Sequence record: MN850576.1
Length of the DNA stretch: 64,000 bases
Strand: one strand, 5' to 3'
Source of the DNA: Escherichia phage ime
The notes beneath the pieces are model-generated. The model was not told where the DNA came from and did no database searches. It worked only from the letters and a program-made list of their open reading frames with translations. Position 1 is the stretch's first letter. Every line of letters starts with the position of its first letter. Of this stretch, positions 4,012 to 45,842 are shown piece by piece. Both the position numbers and the translations under genes were made by a program.

Positions 4012-4251
4012 ATGTACAAGTCATTCTCAATCTACTCAAGACAGGCGAAACACTACACAGAGATCCTGATCACTCAGAAAAAGTCTGTAGAAGGTGAGTG
4101 GGAGTATCACCATAAAATGTTGCGTCCAGATTGGGTTTTTGATAGACTTATTGCTATGATCCCTCTTGGAGAAGTATACCCTCTGACAGGTCATAGGGAT
4201 GCTTGGGATTTAATTGATTACATAGATTCATTTAAGGAGCCTAGATTATGA
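4012..4251 (+). CDS. hypothetical protein
   Basis: Internal ATG of track ORF 3979..4251 with AGAGGGGG RBS. Confidence 0.4.
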   Translation: MYKSFSIYSRQAKHYTEILITQKKSVEGEWEYHHKMLRPDWVFDRLIAMIPLGEVYPLTGHRDAWDLIDYIDSFKEPRL

Positions 4252-4646
4252 AGATTGAGATTACTAAAGAAGGTAAGAAAGTGTCCGGCAACTATGCAAC
4301 AGTAATTCGGGATTTAATGTTTGAAGCCACCAAGATCGGTACATCTAAAGTTGGTCAAACTGTTAGTGTGAAAAGTAATATCGCCACAGGAGAGAAGGTA
4401 TTCATTGTGGTCAAAGGGCAGGATCCCGTGGAAGGAACAGTGGGCCGAGGTGGCTACCTGTGCATTTCTGAAGAGCCGCGTATGTTAGTGGCTGACGCTA
4501 CTATGGGTGGGAAACGTGTGTGCGAGGCGGATGAGGTAATGATTATCCAACCTGTTGATCCAGATGACCCAGCAACTTGGGTGGTAGGAAATGAAATCTT
4601 CTCTTTAGAAGAGTTATCCTTCCCAGCACCGCGCTCTGTTCAGTAA
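4248..4646 (+). CDS. hypothetical protein
   Basis: ORF track; TAAGGAG RBS; ATGA start/stop overlap. Confidence 0.5.
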   Translation: MKIEITKEGKKVSGNYATVIRDLMFEATKIGTSKVGQTVSVKSNIATGEKVFIVVKGQDPVEGTVGRGGYLCISEEPRMLVADATMGGKRVCEADEVMIIQPVDPDDPATWVVGNEIFSLEELSFPAPRSVQ

Positions 4647-32266: not shown

Positions 32267-32328
32267 TTTTCAGATCTCCTTATACAAAAATGCCCCACCC
32301 TTTCGGGCAGGGCTATGTTAACTAGATG

Positions 32329-33555
32329 TTAGAATGGGATGTCATCATCAAAGGCGTACTGTGCTGGATTCTGATCCATCGGGTCATCTTCCTCGTCATT
32401 TACAGGAGGAGCGTCTACAGTATTTTGCTGTGAAGCAGCTTCCTGTTTGGCAGCTTGAGGTTCTTGATGGTCAGTGGACCCAGCACCGTTCTTGATCCAA
32501 TCGTACAACGGCTCAGCCAGATTAGTCAAGACATCTTTTGCTTCTGCAGTAATTGCCGCTGCAAAATCATCAACTTTCGTTTTCTTGTCAATACGGCGAC
32601 AAGCGTTCAACACCGCATTACCGACACTGGCACCTACTTCATCTTCAGTTCGGTTGGTGGCTTGAGCATACTCTTTCTTAAGCTCAATAGTGACTACGTG
32701 CAGTGTTTTAGCCACACCTAGTGGGTCGTCTACCTTAAACCCGCGATCCAGGATGATTTGCAACGCATTGATGCTATGTCCCGTCTCCACACCAATAGGG
32801 TCGTAAGAGGATTTACGCTTGCCACCAGAGCCTTGAGTGCCGTTCTCTGCCTTAGGTGGATAGGCTTTGAAACCACTGATAATGTTTCCGGTGTCTTTGT
32901 CAACAATGGCTGCAACACGACCACCTACCACCAGGTCTTTAAGCTGCTCATCAGTAACAACCATGGCACCTTCGCCAATCTTGTGGTCATTAACAGTAAC
33001 CACGTTGCCAACAATCTGAGTCACATCGCCATAGATGCGTAAAACGTCCTGATTGGCATTCTGCTGAGGTTTCTGCTTCTGGCCTTGTGATTGTGCACCT
33101 TGTTGCTGTTTTTGCTGCTGAGTCGCTGCTGGAGCCTCTCCTGCACCCAGCTTGACCATCTTAGCCAGTGAGCCTTTGTAATAGGTCTTACCGTTATGCT
33201 CGTTTGCCTTCAAAGGGATATTTACGATCCATCCCGGCGTTACGGTTTCCCACTTGTCATCAATCTTAACAGAGACAGAGTCTTGATGACCAGGTTTAAG
33301 CAGCTTATCACCCATACTGATCCAAACTTCTTCACCACCTTGAAGCAGGTTATCAGAGGAATCCAGTTCAGAAATCAGTAAAGAGATGGTGTGGCTGGAT
33401 TCAATTTTCTTACCTTGCCACACAGTGGTTTTAATACCTGTTGTAGGATCAGCACCTTTGATAGGTTTGATGCTGACACGTTTAATCATGCCGTGAGCCA
33501 GTAAAACAGTTTCACGCGGATTCATCGGGTTAGCGAATTGTTGAATAACGCTCAT
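32329..33555 (-). CDS. putative ssDNA-binding/replisome protein with host-SSB-like acidic C-terminal tail
   Basis: C-terminus ...AFDDDIPF matches the E. coli SSB tail; Q-rich linker. Confidence 0.55.
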   Translation of the reverse strand: MSVIQQFANPMNPRETVLLAHGMIKRVSIKPIKGADPTTGIKTTVWQGKKIESSHTISLLISELDSSDNLLQGGEEVWISMGDKLLKPGHQDSVSVKIDDKWETVTPGWIVNIPLKANEHNGKTYYKGSLAKMVKLGAGEAPAATQQQKQQQGAQSQGQKQKPQQNANQDVLRIYGDVTQIVGNVVTVNDHKIGEGAMVVTDEQLKDLVVGGRVAAIVDKDTGNIISGFKAYPPKAENGTQGSGGKRKSSYDPIGVETGHSINALQIILDRGFKVDDPLGVAKTLHVVTIELKKEYAQATNRTEDEVGASVGNAVLNACRRIDKKTKVDDFAAAITAEAKDVLTNLAEPLYDWIKNGAGSTDHQEPQAAKQEAASQQNTVDAPPVNDEEDDPMDQNPAQYAFDDDIPF

Positions 33556-36745: not shown

Positions 36746-37099
36746 TTAGTGACAATCACCCCAATTACGACCACACAAGTATTCACCTGTGATCTGGAAC
36801 GGGACTCCCATCATTTTAGAAGCTTGCCAGAAGCAATGCACCACCATTTCACCCACAGGGCTCCAGATAAGTTCAAGCTTTCCGTCATCGTTCAGGATAG
36901 GATCGTACACCGTGTTTCCGTCTCTGTCAACCACTTCGTTTCCGTTTTCATCCTTGCGTGCCTTTTTGTACTTATGACCGTCAAACACATGAAGTTTGGC
37001 CTCCTGCTCTGCCTTAAATGCTTCCAATTCTTCAATTGTGTCGAAGGTGTACACAGTCTTATACTTAGGCGTGTCAGGGACCTGAAGTTGGTACTCATC
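36746..37099 (-). CDS. DNA polymerase (family A) C-terminal segment: putative exon 2 or C-terminal fragment
   Basis: Begins DEYQLQV directly after a TTG pseudo-start and ends ...NWGDCH like the conserved Pol A C-terminal His; no independent RBS. Confidence 0.55.
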   Translation of the reverse strand, partial: DEYQLQVPDTPKYKTVYTFDTIEELEAFKAEQEAKLHVFDGHKYKKARKDENGNEVVDRDGNTVYDPILNDDGKLELIWSPVGEMVVHCFWQASKMMGVPFQITGEYLCGRNWGDCH

Positions 37100-38001
37100 C
37101 AATAGTTCAGGTAGGTCGTTAAGCTACCCCGCACCATTACGTGCACAGCCATACGGTTTCCTGTATGGATCGGACTATCTCACTACCTTGTTACCAAGGC
37201 ACCTCTCATTTCGACCGCACTTGCTGGCCTACTCTACTCGCTTCTTCACACCAAACTATGTTGGAGCTATGCTTTCGATAGTCTCTGAACGTTACTACCA
37301 GGTGTAGTTTTTAGAGATATGTTTCCACTGTCTTCTTTGCTTTATGGCTCTGACCGTCTCATAAGGATACCCAAGATCCCTAATCTCACATTGTCGTAGA
37401 CCACTCTGCAACAGTTCACAAATCTCCATTACCTCATCCTCGGTCAGCACAGCGTTGGCATTATACTCACCGACTGGCCTTACTCTGAGCTCATTATCGT
37501 AGGCGTGTTTGATATTTTCACCGGGGGTAGTCCATTCCAGGTTCCAGTATGCATTGTTGTACTTATTTCCATCCTTATGGTTCACCCATGTGAGCTTTTC
37601 AGGATCAGGGTTCGGTACAAAGCATTCAGCAACCAAGTGGTGGACACCTTTTGTGCACTGCCTTCCATCGATGAGCATGGTTACGCAAAGGTAACCTCTA
37701 CCATTATCAAAACAAAACATTGTTGTATGATCACGTTTCGATAAAGGTATTGTTCCATCATCAAACACGATATACCCGTGATAATCAGCTGATCTAGCCA
37801 TTTTAACTACACCCCTTTAGTCTTCGCTGCGGATTAGCATATTGAGTTTTTACCATGTTTAGGTGTAAAAGTCAACTTAGCCTTCCCGTCAATTAAAGAG
37901 GTTTTCGACGTGCATCACTGCACGAAGCCACAATGTTATTTATGGTAATAAATAATACGACGAACACCTTCATCGTACCACCCACGCTTCACCATTTGGT
38001 G
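37100..38001 (-). mobile_element. ~900-bp insertion in DNA polymerase gene (putative group I intron carrying an HNH homing endonuclease gene)
   Basis: Interrupts Pol A at motif C (H|DE); stop-rich flanks of 134 and 193 nt around the HNH ORF; last nucleotide G before exon 2. Confidence 0.45.
37295..37801 (-). CDS. HNH homing endonuclease
   Basis: HHLVAECFVPNP...VNHKDGNKYNNAYWNLEWTTPGEN HNH signature. Confidence 0.75.
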   Translation of the reverse strand: MARSADYHGYIVFDDGTIPLSKRDHTTMFCFDNGRGYLCVTMLIDGRQCTKGVHHLVAECFVPNPDPEKLTWVNHKDGNKYNNAYWNLEWTTPGENIKHAYDNELRVRPVGEYNANAVLTEDEVMEICELLQSGLRQCEIRDLGYPYETVRAIKQRRQWKHISKNYTW

Positions 38002-40365
38002 GTGCATGAGTATCCCAACTAAGTCACACAACGATGCACCACCATTTTGTTGGTATGCATTAAGTAAAGAGTGTTTAGATCGGGTCCAGATAGCATGACC
38101 ATCAAAAGAGTAGATAAACTTCTTACCCGTTGCTTCCCAGAATTTCTCCAGATCCTCTTTACGCCCTTTAAGACCAGGGTTGGCATCCCAAAGCGCATCG
38201 ATTACCCTTTGCCCCAACTCTGGGGAGATATCCAGCATGTCTGCAACTTTATCTTTTTGTGCCCCATACATAACCCCGTACGTGATAGGTTTACCGTCGT
38301 TACGAGACACCTCTCTACCTGCTACTTTCGTATATGCCTCAGCATTGTTTTGGTGGGCATCCCCGTTACTTACAACATCGTAATACAGGCCGTTGTCGAA
38401 CTCAAAGGCACCCCAAGCCCCGATAAGCTGCTCTAAGTTGGACCCGTCAATACCGATCTCAAAGTATCCTGGAGGAACACCCCACAGACTGCGCATCTCT
38501 TTACCCATAACCACTTTAGGAGATGGTTTAGGCATGTTTGCACAAATACTGTGTTTCTGTCGGGAAGTGTTTGTTAATCCAGAGCTTTTAGCAGGAAGCT
38601 TATGGTCAATCTTCAAACGTGGGTGATTAAGAAGACCAGTATCAACCTTATCCTCCTTGATTGGATCAAGGACCGATCTGCGGTTTCGCAATGATAACCA
38701 CAAGACGATATCTTTAGCCATCTCTCCGTTCAATTTTTCAAGATTCGGACATAGGTGTCCAAACGTATCTTTCAGTTGCGGAGAAGTAATAAGTGCCCTG
38801 GCTTTTCTGCGTATTTTCCCGAACACTTCCTTTTTAATCCTTTCGGAGTTAGGAAAGCTTCGGAACTTGTGCACTGTTGTCTGAAACTTAGCATCAGTTT
38901 TGTTCCAGAAGTTGATAATTAGGTCACAATACTCTGACTCTAAAAGCTCGTCCATGTATGCATATACTCGTGCATCAACATCTGCATCAGGTAGAGCTTT
39001 CTTCTTGCTGTCCTTAGTTACATCCTTAGTTCTCCACATTGTCGGAAGCCAACCAGCACTGATCAGGTATCGCTTAATGTCGTCCTGGTTGCTGATTTTC
39101 ATAGGTATCTTGCAGTCAGGCATTCGCTTCTGCTGCAGATCACTTATTGCCTGATCCATCAGCTCTTTAGGTAAAGGTTGTGGTGTGGAGGTGCCCTTAA
39201 TATAACCTCTCAAGAAATCAGCCATCTTGTCGGGGTCTTTGCAGCCCATCTCTTCGCACCATTTTATCCCCATCTTGCTGACATCTCCTGTGGAGGTAAA
39301 TGCTCGCTTAGGCGGGGCTTTGAATTCTAAAGCGCTCATGTCTACAGGATAGCCAAGCTTATCTTTTAACCATTTCCAACCATTATTGGAGATTGTCCCA
39401 TCTTGGTTAAACGGCTTTTCAGGGAACTTGGGCCGCTGAGACATTGACAACTCTTTTAAAGGAAGTTGAGGTTCAACACGATCAGCGATCTCTTTCATCC
39501 ACGCATCGCAACGGTCACGTAAAGCAATAGCTCCATCTATGTCGAAGTATACACCCTGACGGGCCTGCAGCTCCATCAGGAAGTGCTGCAGCATGCCTCG
39601 ACGTAATGCGTTCTTCCAGGTGATCTTCTTGAACCCTTTCGGCTTCTCTTTGGCTGGATCGTACATAAAGTTCTGCATGTCAGATTTGCCGTAGAATACA
39701 CCTTTTGATTCCGCTACCAGCTCTTTCCAGAGCAGCTCCTGGATGATAACGTCCTCGAATACACGATCCACATACTTCCACAACGGAAGATCGCGCCAGT
39801 CATCAATTTGAACTTTCTGGTTACCAAGGGCGTAGCCCCATGCCATAAGGCCGTGAGGACCAACAGGCTGCATTTTCTTAGTAACCGGGTTGAATACAGA
39901 GTCCGGACAACCTTTTGGTAAAGGGCGATCAGGCCACAAGATTCTGCTCATCGCCAACGTATCAAACAGGTTAACCTGGTGGTCGTTGATAGTCCCCATG
40001 CATTTAGGATCACGGAACATATCAAAATGAATACCGGATAATCTTTCCATCAGCATAAAGTCATAACTGTAGCAGTTATGGCAGTTCAAAGCTGTTGGTG
40101 ACCAGTCGGAATTGCCTGTAAGCCAACCTTCCAACTCCGAAAAATCTGCTATGCGAACTTCAAAATCTTTATGAAGAGTTTTCTTTGCCAGAATAAAGTT
40201 CTTAGCCTTCTCTATATCCTCTTCGGAGTAGTGTGTGCGGTCATTTAGAGGAAGGAACAGCATAAAACGGTTCTTATTCAGCTCTTTAAACAGGCCGCAG
40301 TGATAATAAAGATCTGGATCTTCCAGCAAACCGGATGACTCAAAGTCGAACGACCACATGCTCAT
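38002..40365 (-). CDS. DNA polymerase, family A (exon 1: 3'-5' exonuclease domain and polymerase motifs A and B)
   Basis: Exo I FDFES; motif A IDGSNLEQL; motif B KPITYGVMYG; frame reads ...GILMH then runs on 21 codons into the insertion to stop at 37936; TAAGGAGA RBS. Confidence 0.8.
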
Positions 40366-40423
40366 ATACAGTTCTCCTTAAAGGGGAGGCGGTTGTACTA
40401 CCCCTCCCACTCTTTGTTAAACA

Positions 40424-42502
40424 TTAAAAAGGTGTTTCATCATCCTCAAAACCAGGGACCGGATCAGAGGATGGATCATCGTATTGGAGGTCTTCCTGCG
40501 TGTCAATAGGCTTGACAGTGGGTGTTACAACCTTATCAGCCACAACCTTGCCCATAGGTGTTTCTACAACTGCATGCTCCTGATCCTCAAACATAGCCTG
40601 AGGTCTCCAAACAACCTCCCCACCTTCTCCGTCTGTAAACATCTGCATTTCTTTGTCCCAGTACCAATTACTGGCATCATGGAACTTACCTGTATGCGGA
40701 TCCATAACTAAAGTGTCAGCAATACCTAAAGTTTTTGCTGGACGGTTTTTAAGACCTACCAGACGGACACGTCCACGAGAACGATCCACCATTTCTTCGG
40801 CCTCGACACCTATGACTACCCAACTCAACTGTTCAAGCCCAGCCGATCCTCGCAAATTCTCTTTTCGCACAGGATACCAGAAAGGTAATGGGTTACCATC
40901 CTTGTCCTTAGGGGGCACAATCTCTGTACGTTTGAGGTGAGCGATCACCAAGATAAACACGTTAAACTGCTTACAAAACGCAGCCAGTTGGGTCATAGCC
41001 ATGTCCAGTTCTTTTCGCTCATCCTTAACATTAAGCCCTGAAATTACCATGGACAGGTGATCCAGCACAATATAACGACAATGGTACAGGCAAACCATTT
41101 GCTTAAGCTTGGTAATCAACTCGTCCACTGGAATAGACCCGAAATGTTTGAACACTTTGATTTTTCCAGCTTTTGCCCATGATTGGTGAATCTCTGCGTG
41201 TTCTTGATCAGTTAAAAACTGGCTAGGATCTTCAACAAACTCTTTAACATCAAACCCTAACTGGTTTGCATACAAGGAGTTAATTGCTTCCTCTGGGTCC
41301 TCCTCAAGATGGATCATACATAGACGATCATCCTCTTCATAGTCATCAGCCTTCGGGCATGTTGGGTCCATTAGGTATCTTGCAATACAATGTTCCAGTT
41401 TTTTAGCTACGGTTGTTTTACCGCCACCTGATGGGCCTGTAAGCATTACAAGTGTCCCCTTGTGCAAGCCTTTTAACATTTTTTGCAGTTTTGGGAACTC
41501 TGCACTGATATCTACCCCGTTGGAAGTCTTTTTCCGCAAAGACTCGATAGAGAAGTCTTCTAAGTCCGACACAGCATCAGGCACGTATTTAACAGGATGC
41601 CGGAACATGTTGACAATATCTTCCAGCTTTTTAGCCTTCAGCATGTCACGGATATCTTTTACCCCGTCAGGGTCATTTACTTCACCAGGGTATTCTACGT
41701 GGTAAACGTTATCAGCCATCAAAAATGCTGCGATATTGTGCGTGGCCTCAACACCTTTAATGACGTGTTTTTGCTTCTCTACCTCGTTGGCTGCATCGTT
41801 ATCCATTGCCAGCACAACTGTTCCATAGCTACGGATAAACTTCTCATTGTTTGCAAAAGTATCTACTGCGTTTGCACATCCACAGTTAATTCCAACAAAA
41901 GGTAGGCAGGGTTTTCCTGCCAGATCACCACCGTTGATAACTGCATCGATCCCGTCCTGGACCTCTTTAGCCCACTGTTTCACCTTTGCCGGGGCTTTAG
42001 CATTGGTGAGAATCCCTTTTACTTGTATCTGATATGCAGCCTGCCATGCTGCAATAACATCGCCTTCCCCCTCACAAACGTTAATCTGCTTACGGTTGTT
42101 AGAAGATGCACACAGCTTTTGCCCAAACATTTGGGAGTTAGCCTTTACGATCCCAACCGTCGTAAAGTGCCCACGTTGCTCTTTGGGGATCGTCCAGTCA
42201 CGCTTTTTGAAACCGGACAGATTCCCGTAGCGGTCGTAATATGGGAAATATGTTGCAGTAACTGTCACACCGTCTTCTTGGGACAATGCTGATCGCACAC
42301 CAAAATATTGTGCAGCCATCAGACCGATATTTTGTTGTGGGACAGGGACAATTTTAGTATTTTCTAAAACAGTCTCTACAGTTTCAACTTCTTTTTCATC
42401 ACGATAGTCTCGTTTCACACTTCCCCCACTTTTATACTTAGTTGCTTTCGGGTTTGGCTCACCGAAACGGTTGTATGCAGATGCCATAAATTTACTTCCC
42501 AT
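40424..42502 (-). CDS. bifunctional primase-helicase (T7 gp4-like: TOPRIM primase plus DnaB-family helicase)
   Basis: TOPRIM-like CEGEGD/AMDNDAANE; Walker A GPSGGGKT; acidic C-terminus ...FEDDETPF. Confidence 0.85.
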   Translation of the reverse strand: MGSKFMASAYNRFGEPNPKATKYKSGGSVKRDYRDEKEVETVETVLENTKIVPVPQQNIGLMAAQYFGVRSALSQEDGVTVTATYFPYYDRYGNLSGFKKRDWTIPKEQRGHFTTVGIVKANSQMFGQKLCASSNNRKQINVCEGEGDVIAAWQAAYQIQVKGILTNAKAPAKVKQWAKEVQDGIDAVINGGDLAGKPCLPFVGINCGCANAVDTFANNEKFIRSYGTVVLAMDNDAANEVEKQKHVIKGVEATHNIAAFLMADNVYHVEYPGEVNDPDGVKDIRDMLKAKKLEDIVNMFRHPVKYVPDAVSDLEDFSIESLRKKTSNGVDISAEFPKLQKMLKGLHKGTLVMLTGPSGGGKTTVAKKLEHCIARYLMDPTCPKADDYEEDDRLCMIHLEEDPEEAINSLYANQLGFDVKEFVEDPSQFLTDQEHAEIHQSWAKAGKIKVFKHFGSIPVDELITKLKQMVCLYHCRYIVLDHLSMVISGLNVKDERKELDMAMTQLAAFCKQFNVFILVIAHLKRTEIVPPKDKDGNPLPFWYPVRKENLRGSAGLEQLSWVVIGVEAEEMVDRSRGRVRLVGLKNRPAKTLGIADTLVMDPHTGKFHDASNWYWDKEMQMFTDGEGGEVVWRPQAMFEDQEHAVVETPMGKVVADKVVTPTVKPIDTQEDLQYDDPSSDPVPGFEDDETPF

Positions 42503-43286
42503 TAATTCTGCTCCTTACTACAGGCTCGTTTGCTAAGAATACGGCTTTTGCCCAGCCACGTGGTGTGAGGCTTCGGATCATCTTCGTTCTTGCACTCTTC
42601 CCACCCAGCTTGGCGTGTTGCATGGAATACCCGCTAACCGCGTCAACTATTTGCGGGACAGGTTTTGTGGCCGGGATTATAAATCCATTACCTATCCAGC
42701 CGCAAGTTATTTTTGGATAGGCATCACGTGGAGCTATAAATTCAGGAAACCAGGGGTTTACATCATCCTCCGGTAAATACCCGCCATAGTCAGAAGGATG
42801 AAAACGGTAATCAGGTTTGCGCCACAGTGTGGACATAACACCAACAGGATTCTCTACATGCCACGGGCAATCGTAAATCTCTCCCAGCTCTTCCGCAACC
42901 CGAGCATCCTTTACAGCATTAATTTGGATCAAAGGATCCTTAGCCAGCTTTTTCTTAAAATGTGCAGCACCTGATACCGCTAAATGCGTGCACGGAGGAA
43001 ATGCAAGAATAAAGTCTGGAGCTGGATACATGCAAAAAGTTTCCTGAGGGAACCATGGGTCAATCCAATAATCCACATAGTGAATGTTAGGATGATCGGT
43101 TATCACCTCTGCATAACTGCCGTGGTCAGCACCTTCTGCATTAAAGCACAGGCACAGGTACCCAGCTTTTGCCCAGTCAATAACTGCACCACCAGACCCG
43201 TCAAATAGACTCCACACAACACCTTTGTGGTAGTGTTCTTTGTAGATGAATTTCAATTTGCTGTCTCCTAATGCAAAAAGCCCCAC
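42492..43286 (-). CDS. DNA cytosine-5 methyltransferase-like protein (atypical)
   Basis: Motif I LFDGSGG, motif IV AFPPCT (PCQ-like, Q to T), motif VI ENPVG; overlaps primase-helicase start by 11 nt. Confidence 0.55.
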   Translation of the reverse strand: MGLFALGDSKLKFIYKEHYHKGVVWSLFDGSGGAVIDWAKAGYLCLCFNAEGADHGSYAEVITDHPNIHYVDYWIDPWFPQETFCMYPAPDFILAFPPCTHLAVSGAAHFKKKLAKDPLIQINAVKDARVAEELGEIYDCPWHVENPVGVMSTLWRKPDYRFHPSDYGGYLPEDDVNPWFPEFIAPRDAYPKITCGWIGNGFIIPATKPVPQIVDAVSGYSMQHAKLGGKSARTKMIRSLTPRGWAKAVFLANEPVVRSRINGK

Positions 43287-44516: not shown

Positions 44517-45842
44517 TTATTGATCAGAATTATCTTTCGTAATTAAGGTCTGGGTAAGTTTGTAATAGCGGAAGCCACCGCCACCTTGCCAGCTTGCAGA
44601 CTTAGAAATACCACCTTGATCTTCACCATCAATCACTTTTTGCAAGCGAGGGATAATATGGGTATGACAATGATCACCCAGTTCGATCAAGATCCAACGT
44701 CTTTTCATCTTGTGGGCTACAGCAGCAGTAGTTCCCGAACCGCCGAATGAATCCAATACCAAATCACCTTCTCGCGTACACATTTCGAGAATCCGCTTCA
44801 AAAGCGCTTCTGGTTTTTTTCCATTTTTGAAACTAACGCCGCCTTCATTTGCTATTCCATTCCAACTAATGTCTGTCCAAACATCAGTTATTAGTTCCGC
44901 AGGTTGCATCTCACCGTCAATTTCCAAAAGCCTGTTGGAGTAAAAGACCATTTGCCTACCATTTGCGATATAAAATCCTTCAACATCCTCATTCGGATGT
45001 GCATAAACCTTATCCCTATCTTTCTTTGACTTCTCGATAGTTTCTTTTCTCTTTATTTTAGCGCCACCACCAATTGCAACAGATTGAAATACACGTTCTG
45101 CATTATCAATTGCGAATTGTGCTAATTCATCATCGAATGTGTCAGGCAGTTTTTTCTTAGCTTCTTTTGCATCTTTATAGCCATTGGCCTTTGCAAACGC
45201 ATCGGCAATACCGCACCACGTCCAATTTTTATAATGGTCATCCGGGTTTAATAGGTATTTGTTATATCCTGTATCATACCCTTTAGGTATATAGATTTTG
45301 TTAAGCGGTTTCTGGGTGCGATCTTTTGCATATACAAGCAAAAAGTTTGCTGTGGAGAAAACTGTGGCTCCTGTTGCCTTAAATCCCGAAGGGGAATTTG
45401 TGGTCATCGATATGGTATTTAACTGATTTGCACGACCAAAAATCTCGTCCATCAAAACTTTTAAATACGCCATTTCGCAATCATCTAAGTGAACGAATAT
45501 TACCCCATCATCACTTAGAAGATTACGAATTATTTCTAACCTATCCCTCATTAAGCCCAGCCAAATGGAATGCTCAAGGCTATCATCGTAGTGCTCAAAA
45601 GCCCTTCCAGTATTGAATGGTGGGTCTATGTAAACACATTTCACTTTGCCTGCATACTCTTGCTCTAGCGCCTTCAATGCTAATAAGTTATCTCCAAAAA
45701 TCAGTTTATTATCAAAAATATCGTTTTCGGTCACTTTCTGGCTGTGGTAAGACTTGCTAGAATCTTCTAACAAAATGTGCGGCTCTAACTTTTTGCGCTC
45801 GTTTTTACCTATCCAGGTTAGTTCTAATTTGGTTTTACTCAT
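44517..45842 (-). CDS. DNA methyltransferase, beta-class (N6-adenine or N4-cytosine)
   Basis: Motif IV VYIDPPF N-terminal, motif I FGGSGTT C-terminal. Confidence 0.7.
   Translation of the reverse strand: MSKTKLELTWIGKNERKKLEPHILLEDSSKSYHSQKVTENDIFDNKLIFGDNLLALKALEQEYAGKVKCVYIDPPFNTGRAFEHYDDSLEHSIWLGLMRDRLEIIRNLLSDDGVIFVHLDDCEMAYLKVLMDEIFGRANQLNTISMTTNSPSGFKATGATVFSTANFLLVYAKDRTQKPLNKIYIPKGYDTGYNKYLLNPDDHYKNWTWCGIADAFAKANGYKDAKEAKKKLPDTFDDELAQFAIDNAERVFQSVAIGGGAKIKRKETIEKSKKDRDKVYAHPNEDVEGFYIANGRQMVFYSNRLLEIDGEMQPAELITDVWTDISWNGIANEGGVSFKNGKKPEALLKRILEMCTREGDLVLDSFGGSGTTAAVAHKMKRRWILIELGDHCHTHIIPRLQKVIDGEDQGGISKSASWQGGGGFRYYKLTQTLITKDNSDQ

Follow-up and report, generated by a model that had tools for sequence, protein, structure and literature searches.

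Escherichia phage ime (sequence record MN850576.1) was analysed over a stretch of 64,000 nucleotides, called the window in the following. Its minus strand carries the gene of a T7 gp4-like primase-helicase (40424..42502; 692 residues followed by a TAA stop codon), which is adjoined downstream by the gene of a family A DNA polymerase, and the gene of a protein that resembles single-stranded DNA-binding proteins (SSB-like protein; 32329..33555, 408 residues). The primase-helicase ends in ...DPSSDPVPGFEDDETPF and the SSB-like protein in ...NPAQYAFDDDIPF, in both cases followed by TAA. The original prediction had named the acidic tail ...FEDDETPF of the helicase, and was exact in coordinates and sequence; its further statement that an SSB-like protein also has an acidic Pro-Phe end was borne out by the ending FDDDIPF. 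The tip of the helicase is under purifying selection and very probably represents a functional docking motif.

The primase-helicase and its Pro-Phe tip

The 2,079-bp interval of the primase-helicase is 100% identical to a coding sequence of Escherichia phage rV5_ev146 (LR699804, Vequintavirus) annotated as "DNA replicative helicase/primase", and the gene occurs in dozens of rV5-like coliphages with 97-98% identity to the window copy. Its product matches PHROG 239 ("DNA primase/helicase", E 7e-160) and the Pfam families DnaB_C (E 2e-13) and AAA_25 (E 2e-15), and in HMMER alignments it is collinear with T7 gp4 across the primase and helicase domains, reaching T7 residue 545. In the TOPRIM RNA-polymerase (primase) domain (41588..42385, minus strand; approximately residues 40-305), the motifs EGEGD, DND, and KD align to E157 (EGEID), D207/D209 (DMD), and D237 of T7. 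The respective acidic residues (E144, D234, D236, and D283) are invariant across 38 homologues. The superfamily 4 (DnaB/gp4-type) helicase domain (40598..41515, minus strand; approximately residues 330-635, with the DnaB_C match at residues 332-589) aligns to residues 393-545 of T7 gp4 and has the P-loop GPSGGGKT where T7 has SGSGMGKS. A monomer model was built with AlphaFold2 on 38 homologues. Its predicted local distance difference test score (pLDDT) is about 90 or above over most of the primase domain and mostly 75-90 in the helicase domain, whereas residues 1-36 and 639-692 score 30-47 and are predicted to be disordered. The best matches of this model in the Protein Data Bank (PDB), according to Foldseek, are the T7 gp4 chains 5ikn and 6n9x from T7 replisome structures (E ~1e-30, about 575 columns), with target-normalised TM-scores of 0.77-0.81 against T7 helicase-domain chains. 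Judged by sequence and predicted fold, the protein is a true relative of T7 gp4.

A Cys4 zinc-binding domain like that of T7 gp4A (CDNC...CYVC) was not found: no CxxC motif occurs within the first 120 residues in 24 of 24 diverse homologues examined, and the first cysteine of the window protein is residue 131. No zinc finger precedes the TOPRIM domain, as in the short T7 form, gp4B. The rV5-like primase-helicases thus combine the absence of a Cys4 domain (residues 1-40, 42385-42502, minus strand) with invariant TOPRIM catalytic residues. Twinkle, the mitochondrial gp4 homologue and the next-best structural match after T7 gp4, shares the primase-helicase fold of the gp4 family and has no Pro-Phe tail. 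Metazoan Twinkle has lost the primase catalytic residues as well as a functional zinc finger, whereas the former are invariant in the rV5-type proteins. The missing zinc finger of the metazoan protein has been described before (PMC2241861).

About 80 residues of the window helicase extend past the point where the T7 helicase core ends. This region is acidic (20 acidic and 5 basic residues, with 8 prolines, between residues 611 and 692), and its final 32 residues contain 10 acidic residues but only one basic residue. The last 54 residues (639-692; 40427..40588, minus strand; pLDDT 30-41) are a predicted disordered acidic linker that carries the tip FEDDETPF (residues 685-692; 40427..40450, minus strand). 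Such endings are rare in the window. The six frames contain 329 open reading frames (ORFs) of at least 50 residues. Three of them have Pro-Phe at the end, and only those of the helicase and the SSB-like protein also have at least three acidic residues in the preceding six positions; composition predicts 0.02 acidic Pro-Phe endings, and the frequency with which the same 8-mer pattern occurs internally predicts 0.06.

The pattern of conservation is more telling. The 120 database homologues, with core identities of 42-99%, provided 74 distinct tails. Of these, 72 have Phe in the last position (entropy 0.21 bits) and 69 have Pro in the penultimate one (0.46 bits), whereas the 30 residues upstream of this pair are essentially saturated with about 3 bits of entropy. 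Positions -4, -6, and -8 are acidic in 69-74% of the tails, and position -3 is occupied by Thr, Ser, Glu, or Cys (Thr in the window). Some homologues end in DFDDDTPF, just one residue away from DFDDDIPF of Escherichia coli SSB, and the helicases of some relatives lack the proline but retain the terminal Phe, as in T7. Because the Pro-Phe pair is conserved behind a hypervariable linker, the tip has the properties of a short linear motif on a spacer that is indifferent to sequence. For the wider gp4 family, 1.84 billion cluster representatives were searched exhaustively with HMMER, which gave 147 further representatives of the family. Their last residue is Phe in 48 cases and Tyr or Trp in 29, far above background, while just eight (5%) have Pro-Phe. 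A terminal aromatic residue is thus a theme of the whole family, and Pro-Phe a format specific to the rV5-like clade along with a few others.

The tails of the T7 proteins, read from NC_001604, are ...DWSNDTDF for gp4 and ...EEADEDGDF for gp2.5. The window helicase has in common with T7 gp4 (...SESTDWSNDTDF) that the proteins are homologous, combine TOPRIM and SF4 domains, and have a disordered, acidic, Phe-ended C-terminus; in both phages the gene adjoins a family A polymerase gene and the phage SSB has a matching tail. However, the rV5-type tail, with about 54-80 residues past the helicase core, is approximately three times longer than the 17-residue tail of T7 gp4, and it ends in Pro-Phe instead of Asp-Phe; the Cys4 domain is found in T7 only. 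With the C-terminus of bacterial SSB (SSB-Ct; DDDIPF), the helicase tip shares an acidic run plus penultimate Pro and terminal Phe, the location behind a disordered linker, and in the window also the free carboxylate (Pro-Phe directly followed by TAA). The differences are that the helicase tip sits on a motor protein and not on a binder of single-stranded DNA (ssDNA) with an oligonucleotide/oligosaccharide-binding (OB) fold, and that Thr, Ser, Glu, or Cys stands in place of Ile at position -3. The rV5-type tail is best described as a gp4 tail rewritten in the bacterial SSB-Ct format.

Several features of the helicase gene and its surroundings differ among relatives. Many relatives (P0006-P0008 and P0047-P0095; 975-1025 residues) have an intein of 308-323 residues in the helicase domain, which begins with Cys, ends in ...TGN followed by Ser, and is inserted after ...NLRG|SAGLEQ. 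This insertion point corresponds to residue 552 of the window protein (approximately 40847-40849), which has no intein. A DNA methyltransferase-like gene (PHROG 757; 42492-43286, minus strand) overlaps the start of the helicase gene by 11 nucleotides, and a second methylase (Pfam N6_N4_Mtase; 44517-45842, minus strand) is located further upstream. In more distant relatives, the place just upstream of the helicase gene is taken by an RNase H gene and not by the methyltransferase-like gene (L054, 9558-10004; L056, 9480-10001). A phage RNase H was considered as a partner of the tail and rejected, as the window has no RNase H homologue. A "ribonucleoside diphosphate reductase small subunit" with the tail motif, annotated in Klebsiella phage K45PH128C2 (OY978796; L004, 496-1584), turned out to be the misannotated C-terminal half of a primase-helicase.

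The SSB-like protein and the polymerase

The SSB-like protein consists of an OB-like domain (residues 1-138), a second beta domain (171-232), a four-helix bundle (253-355), and a disordered acidic tail (363-408), of which residues 363-403 and 406-408 have pLDDT values below 50 in the AlphaFold2 monomer model. Its tip FDDDIPF (32332..32352, minus strand) is an exact match to the tip of E. coli SSB, and P407 and F408 do not vary among 35 homologues; the tails of several relatives read EPPMDFDDDIPF. In all SSB-type tails compared, position -3 is Ile, Val, or Leu. The protein has no match in Pfam or among PDB sequences, and only the fold search was informative. A phmmer search against all PDB sequences (E <=10), which should include T7 gp2.5, a protein of solved structure, gave just two chance-level matches to unrelated proteins, so that homology with gp2.5 was not found by sequence. 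According to the fold search, the two proteins share a generic OB fold only. Further common traits are the acidic, Phe-ended tail and the occurrence in a phage with a gp4/PolA replisome, whereas the rV5-type protein differs from gp2.5 in having 408 residues, a second beta domain, a four-helix bundle, and a tip of the bacterial type. Given its OB-like fold and its tip, "SSB-like" is a reasonable label for this protein, for which we infer binding of ssDNA. An SSB function is likely for this protein, which the rV5-type records examined list as hypothetical.

Some details of its architecture also deserve mention. The OB-like barrel is followed by a Gln-rich disordered linker, and the second, small beta domain is absent from shorter relatives. 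The four-helix bundle is conserved, with invariant residues G259, H260, N263, G312, and L316 in the motifs ...ETGHxxNA... and ...VGNAVLNACRR. Downstream of the gene lies a G+C-rich, terminator-like hairpin (GCCCTGCCCGAAAGGGTGGGGCATTTTT; 32280-32325, minus strand), and another G+C-rich hairpin (GGGAGGGG...CCGCCTCCCC; 40375-40415, minus strand) is situated between the helicase gene and the ribosome-binding site of the polymerase gene; both were noted by reading the sequence.

A PolA gene directly follows the helicase gene in every locus examined. In the window, an intervening sequence of 842 nucleotides (37100-37941, minus strand) interrupts this gene (36746-40365) at motif C (YYH|DE). The intervening sequence is matched by the group I intron model of Rfam (RF00028) with 31.9 bits (E 3e-5), which is below the gathering score, and contains an ORF for an HNH endonuclease (37295-37801). 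Exon 1 (37942..40365, minus strand; Pfam DNA_pol_A, PHROG 17) was aligned to T7 gp5 and encodes most of the T7-like polymerase that is the candidate docking partner; exon 2 (36746..37099, minus strand) encodes DEYQLQV...NWGDCH followed by a stop codon, and is annotated as "Phage protein" in the public record. Joining ...IIYYH to DEYQLQV... restores the sequence ...IYYHDEYQLQVP of the unsplit Mydovirus polymerase and gives a spliced product of 925 residues, which ends in NWGDCH where T7 has NWAICH. The motif GKK[F/Y]I aligns to R590/R591 of the T7 enzyme and is kept in all four rV5-like polymerases aligned (GKKF in the window, and three relatives). At the site of the thioredoxin-binding domain of T7, the polymerase has a larger, Lys-rich thumb insertion.

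A peptide added after Pro-Phe in relatives

In many phage SSBs, rV5-type SSB-like proteins, and Mydovirus helicases, the Pro-Phe pair is directly followed by an additional 14-15 residues (...DDDIPF-AP[I/V]GLQY-x2-4-[LIF][LIM]x[CAVS][MIL]-COOH), which have hydrophobic ends such as ...PALLMCM, ...GKSRIHAL, or ...AKHAIYVI and bury the Phe carboxylate. This add-on was located in relatives at 4228-4272 of locus L002, 5017-5064 of L003, and 1537-1584 of L004, at the C-terminus of the SSB-like protein of L059, and in L006-L053. It is absent from the window, where Pro-Phe is followed by TAA at both 32329-32334 and 40424-40429. A search of IMG/VR with a degenerate DNA pattern retrieved 48 viral contigs with the add-on, mostly in ordinary phage SSBs of 150-250 residues with EPPMDFDDDIPF and with unrelated genes downstream. 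By tblastn, the motif was found in 478 phage records, 215 of which covered most of the 26-residue query. The peptide is kept while the third codon positions vary freely, and no description of the motif was found in the literature searched. It shows that Pro-Phe need not be terminal in all lineages.

A Cys-rich "endonuclease VII" ORF (MAKVESTHCKRCIKCGEV...DGHLNKCKEC) starts inside the add-on (L002, 4244-4867; L005, 1544-2167, which is ORF213 of rV5). In rV5 proper and many relatives, the Phe codon and the stop codon of the SSB-like gene precisely flank the block of add-on and endonuclease. The matching site in the window is 32329-32331, and the window has neither add-on nor endonuclease. Similar endonuclease ORFs follow SSB genes with the add-on in at least five viral contigs. 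The idea that the add-on is generally a by-product of homing-endonuclease insertion was nonetheless rejected, because this peptide is found in the 48 viral contigs with unrelated genes behind it; the freedom of the third codon positions also speaks against it, as does a synonymous TAT-to-TAC change in the Mydovirus helicase that removes the ATG of the endonuclease frame. An origin by read-through into a group I intron was rejected as well, as Rfam gave no match in L002 or L003.

Candidate partners of the tips

The most probable function of the helicase tail is to hold the polymerase at the replication fork. The last approximately 54 residues would form a disordered, strongly acidic leash, and the tip, [D/E]-x-[D/E]-x-(T/S/E)-P-F-COOH, a short linear docking motif. 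The six tails of a hexamer could thereby retain the family A polymerase encoded by the adjacent gene, and perhaps the SSB-like protein too. Capture would be electrostatic, with the terminal Phe in addition entering a hydrophobic pocket that has basic residues around its rim. As the tail of the SSB-like protein (FDDDIPF) has the same kind of tip, the two proteins probably address one common site or set of sites in competition, which would allow a hand-off. This tether is proposed because the acidic, Phe-ended tails of the homologous T7 gp4 bind basic patches of T7 polymerase, and loss of the tail lowers processivity threefold (PMC8472574). The tail of gp2.5 docks on K587, K589, R590, and R591 of the same polymerase (PMC12339929). 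The adjacency of helicase and PolA genes in every locus examined, the motif GKK[F/Y]I at the position of T7 R590/R591 as a possible docking site, and the Lys-rich thumb insertion lend further support to this model. We assign a probability of roughly 0.55 to the phage polymerase being the main target of the helicase tail. Within a phage, the tip formats tend to match: plain Pro-Phe is found on both proteins in the window, and Pro-Phe with the same 15-residue add-on is found on both in Mydovirus Seu621. A Pro-Phe-type phage tip that serves a phage partner is known from the SSB of phage HK620, whose last six residues (NDYPPF) are required for loading Sak4 (PMC5928155). In that system, however, the partner is a recombinase on SSB-coated ssDNA, and no helicase tail is involved.

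Several observations weaken this model. The covariation of helicase and SSB-like tips among the relatives compared is only partial: relatives with helicases ending in ...GSF or ...QEF have SSB-like proteins ending in ...EEVPF or ...DDDIPFN, and in the rV5 type strain only the SSB-like protein bears the add-on. In Mydovirus helicases, Pro-Phe is internal. A single additional Gly after SSB-Ct abolishes pocket binding in E. coli (PMC3632105), and a free Phe carboxylate thus cannot be a universal requirement. The loop of the T7 front basic patch is 12 residues shorter in the window polymerase, which keeps two of the four basic residues, and the thumb insertion has no demonstrable homology to the T7 thioredoxin-binding domain. 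Moreover, the polar residue at position -3 of the helicase tips, versus Ile, Val, or Leu in SSB tips, points to a tuned recognition and not to an identical one. Finally, the tip of the SSB-like protein equals the host SSB-Ct, so that host targets fit as well as phage ones and host SSB-interacting proteins stay plausible targets. The analogies to T7 and to the host in the original prediction therefore need qualification. The parallel with T7 gp4 and gp2.5 holds for the homology of gp4, the synteny with the polymerase gene, and the acidic Phe-ended tails of the T7 proteins, but does not extend to sequence homology of the SSB-like protein with gp2.5. A T7-style replisome is in line with the PolA gene next to the helicase gene, and less so with the missing zinc-binding domain, a front basic patch of which just half is kept, and the non-terminal Pro-Phe of Mydovirus. 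Mimicry of the host SSB tail is complete for the SSB-like protein and partial for the helicase, which has Thr, Ser, Glu, or Cys in place of Ile at position -3.

Among the alternatives, the one that survives best, although we consider it unlikely, is that the helicase tip mimics SSB-Ct in order to recruit host proteins such as the primase DnaG, DNA polymerase III's chi subunit, PriA, RecQ, exonuclease I (Exo I), or RNase HI, the hexamer acting as an SSB-like hub. The essentials of SSB-Ct (acidic run, penultimate Pro, and terminal Phe) are indeed kept in the helicase tip, up to the DFDDDTPF of some homologues, and the phage SSB-like protein has the exact host tip, with EPPMDFDDDIPF in relatives. 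The rarity of Pro-Phe endings in the wider gp4 family (8 of 147) would imply convergence on the SSB format in the rV5-like clade in particular. DDDIPF, the E. coli SSB-Ct consensus, is read by E. coli DnaG, chi, PriA, Exo I, and RecQ via a pocket that depends on a free carboxylate at the Phe, and in DnaG this pocket is located in the helicase-binding domain (PMC3632105). The zinc-binding domain is absent across the primase-helicase homologues examined, and one could speculate that recruitment of DnaG would offset this loss. However, the phage has its own polymerase, and the invariant TOPRIM catalytic acids argue for self-priming. The polar position -3 of the helicase, compared to Ile, Val, or Leu in SSB-type tails, suggests a tuned specificity; some relatives lost the Pro and kept the terminal Phe in a T7-like manner; and the add-on variants bury the very carboxylate that the host pockets require (PMC3632105). 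A bolder version, which we regard as improbable, would see the hexamer with its six SSB-Ct-like tips as an "SSB impersonator" that plugs the fork into the host SSB interactome and chiefly recruits DnaG, with the 15-residue add-on as a cap that switches the tips from host-type to phage-only recognition.

It is similarly doubtful that the tails serve self-regulation, with the acidic tail as a DNA mimic that folds onto the DNA-binding surface of its own helicase, or onto the OB fold of the SSB-like protein, and thus gates ring loading, oligomerisation, or ssDNA affinity. The excess of acidic over basic residues in the last 32 positions of the helicase (10 versus 1) would suit such a role. Precedents exist, as the DNA-binding clefts of T7 gp2.5 and E. 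coli SSB are each bound by the tail of the same protein and AlphaFold2 places the gp2.5 tail in its own groove (PMC12339929), and the DNA-binding domain of E. coli SSB inhibits its own C-terminus (PMC3632105). In the monomer models of the window proteins, however, neither tail docks confidently onto its own protein (pLDDT 30-41 in the helicase; below 50 in residues 363-403 and 406-408 of the SSB-like protein). If the tail mimicked nothing but charge, there would also be no need to keep Pro-Phe invariant next to an acidic linker that is free to drift. That the ending arose by chance, or from the composition of a disordered C-terminus, is hardly credible: acidic disordered C-termini are common among phage proteins and several other ORFs of the window end in acidic runs, but the two acidic Pro-Phe endings, against 0.02-0.06 expected, both belong to replication proteins, terminal aromatics are enriched throughout the gp4 family, and the near-invariance of Phe and Pro down to about 42% identity, next to saturated positions, effectively refutes this reading.

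The class of mechanism considered here is already well known. The T7 replisome is kept together by acidic Phe-tipped tails, and recruitment in bacterial genome maintenance is signalled mainly by SSB-Ct. For rV5, the genome paper listed gp230 only as a "possible helicase" and identified no SSB (PMC3606486), and neither the helicase tail, nor the SSB-like protein, nor SSB-Ct mimicry by a phage helicase was found described in the literature searched. The Vequintavirinae and their relatives, a large and therapeutically used group, merge both principles: their gp4-type helicase and their SSB, a non-canonical one with an OB fold, each carry a tip of bacterial format. If these tips share a site on the polymerase, this would be a second, independent system for the hand-off between helicase, polymerase, and SSB; if they also reach the partners of host SSB, they would represent a new route by which phages access host replication and repair factors.

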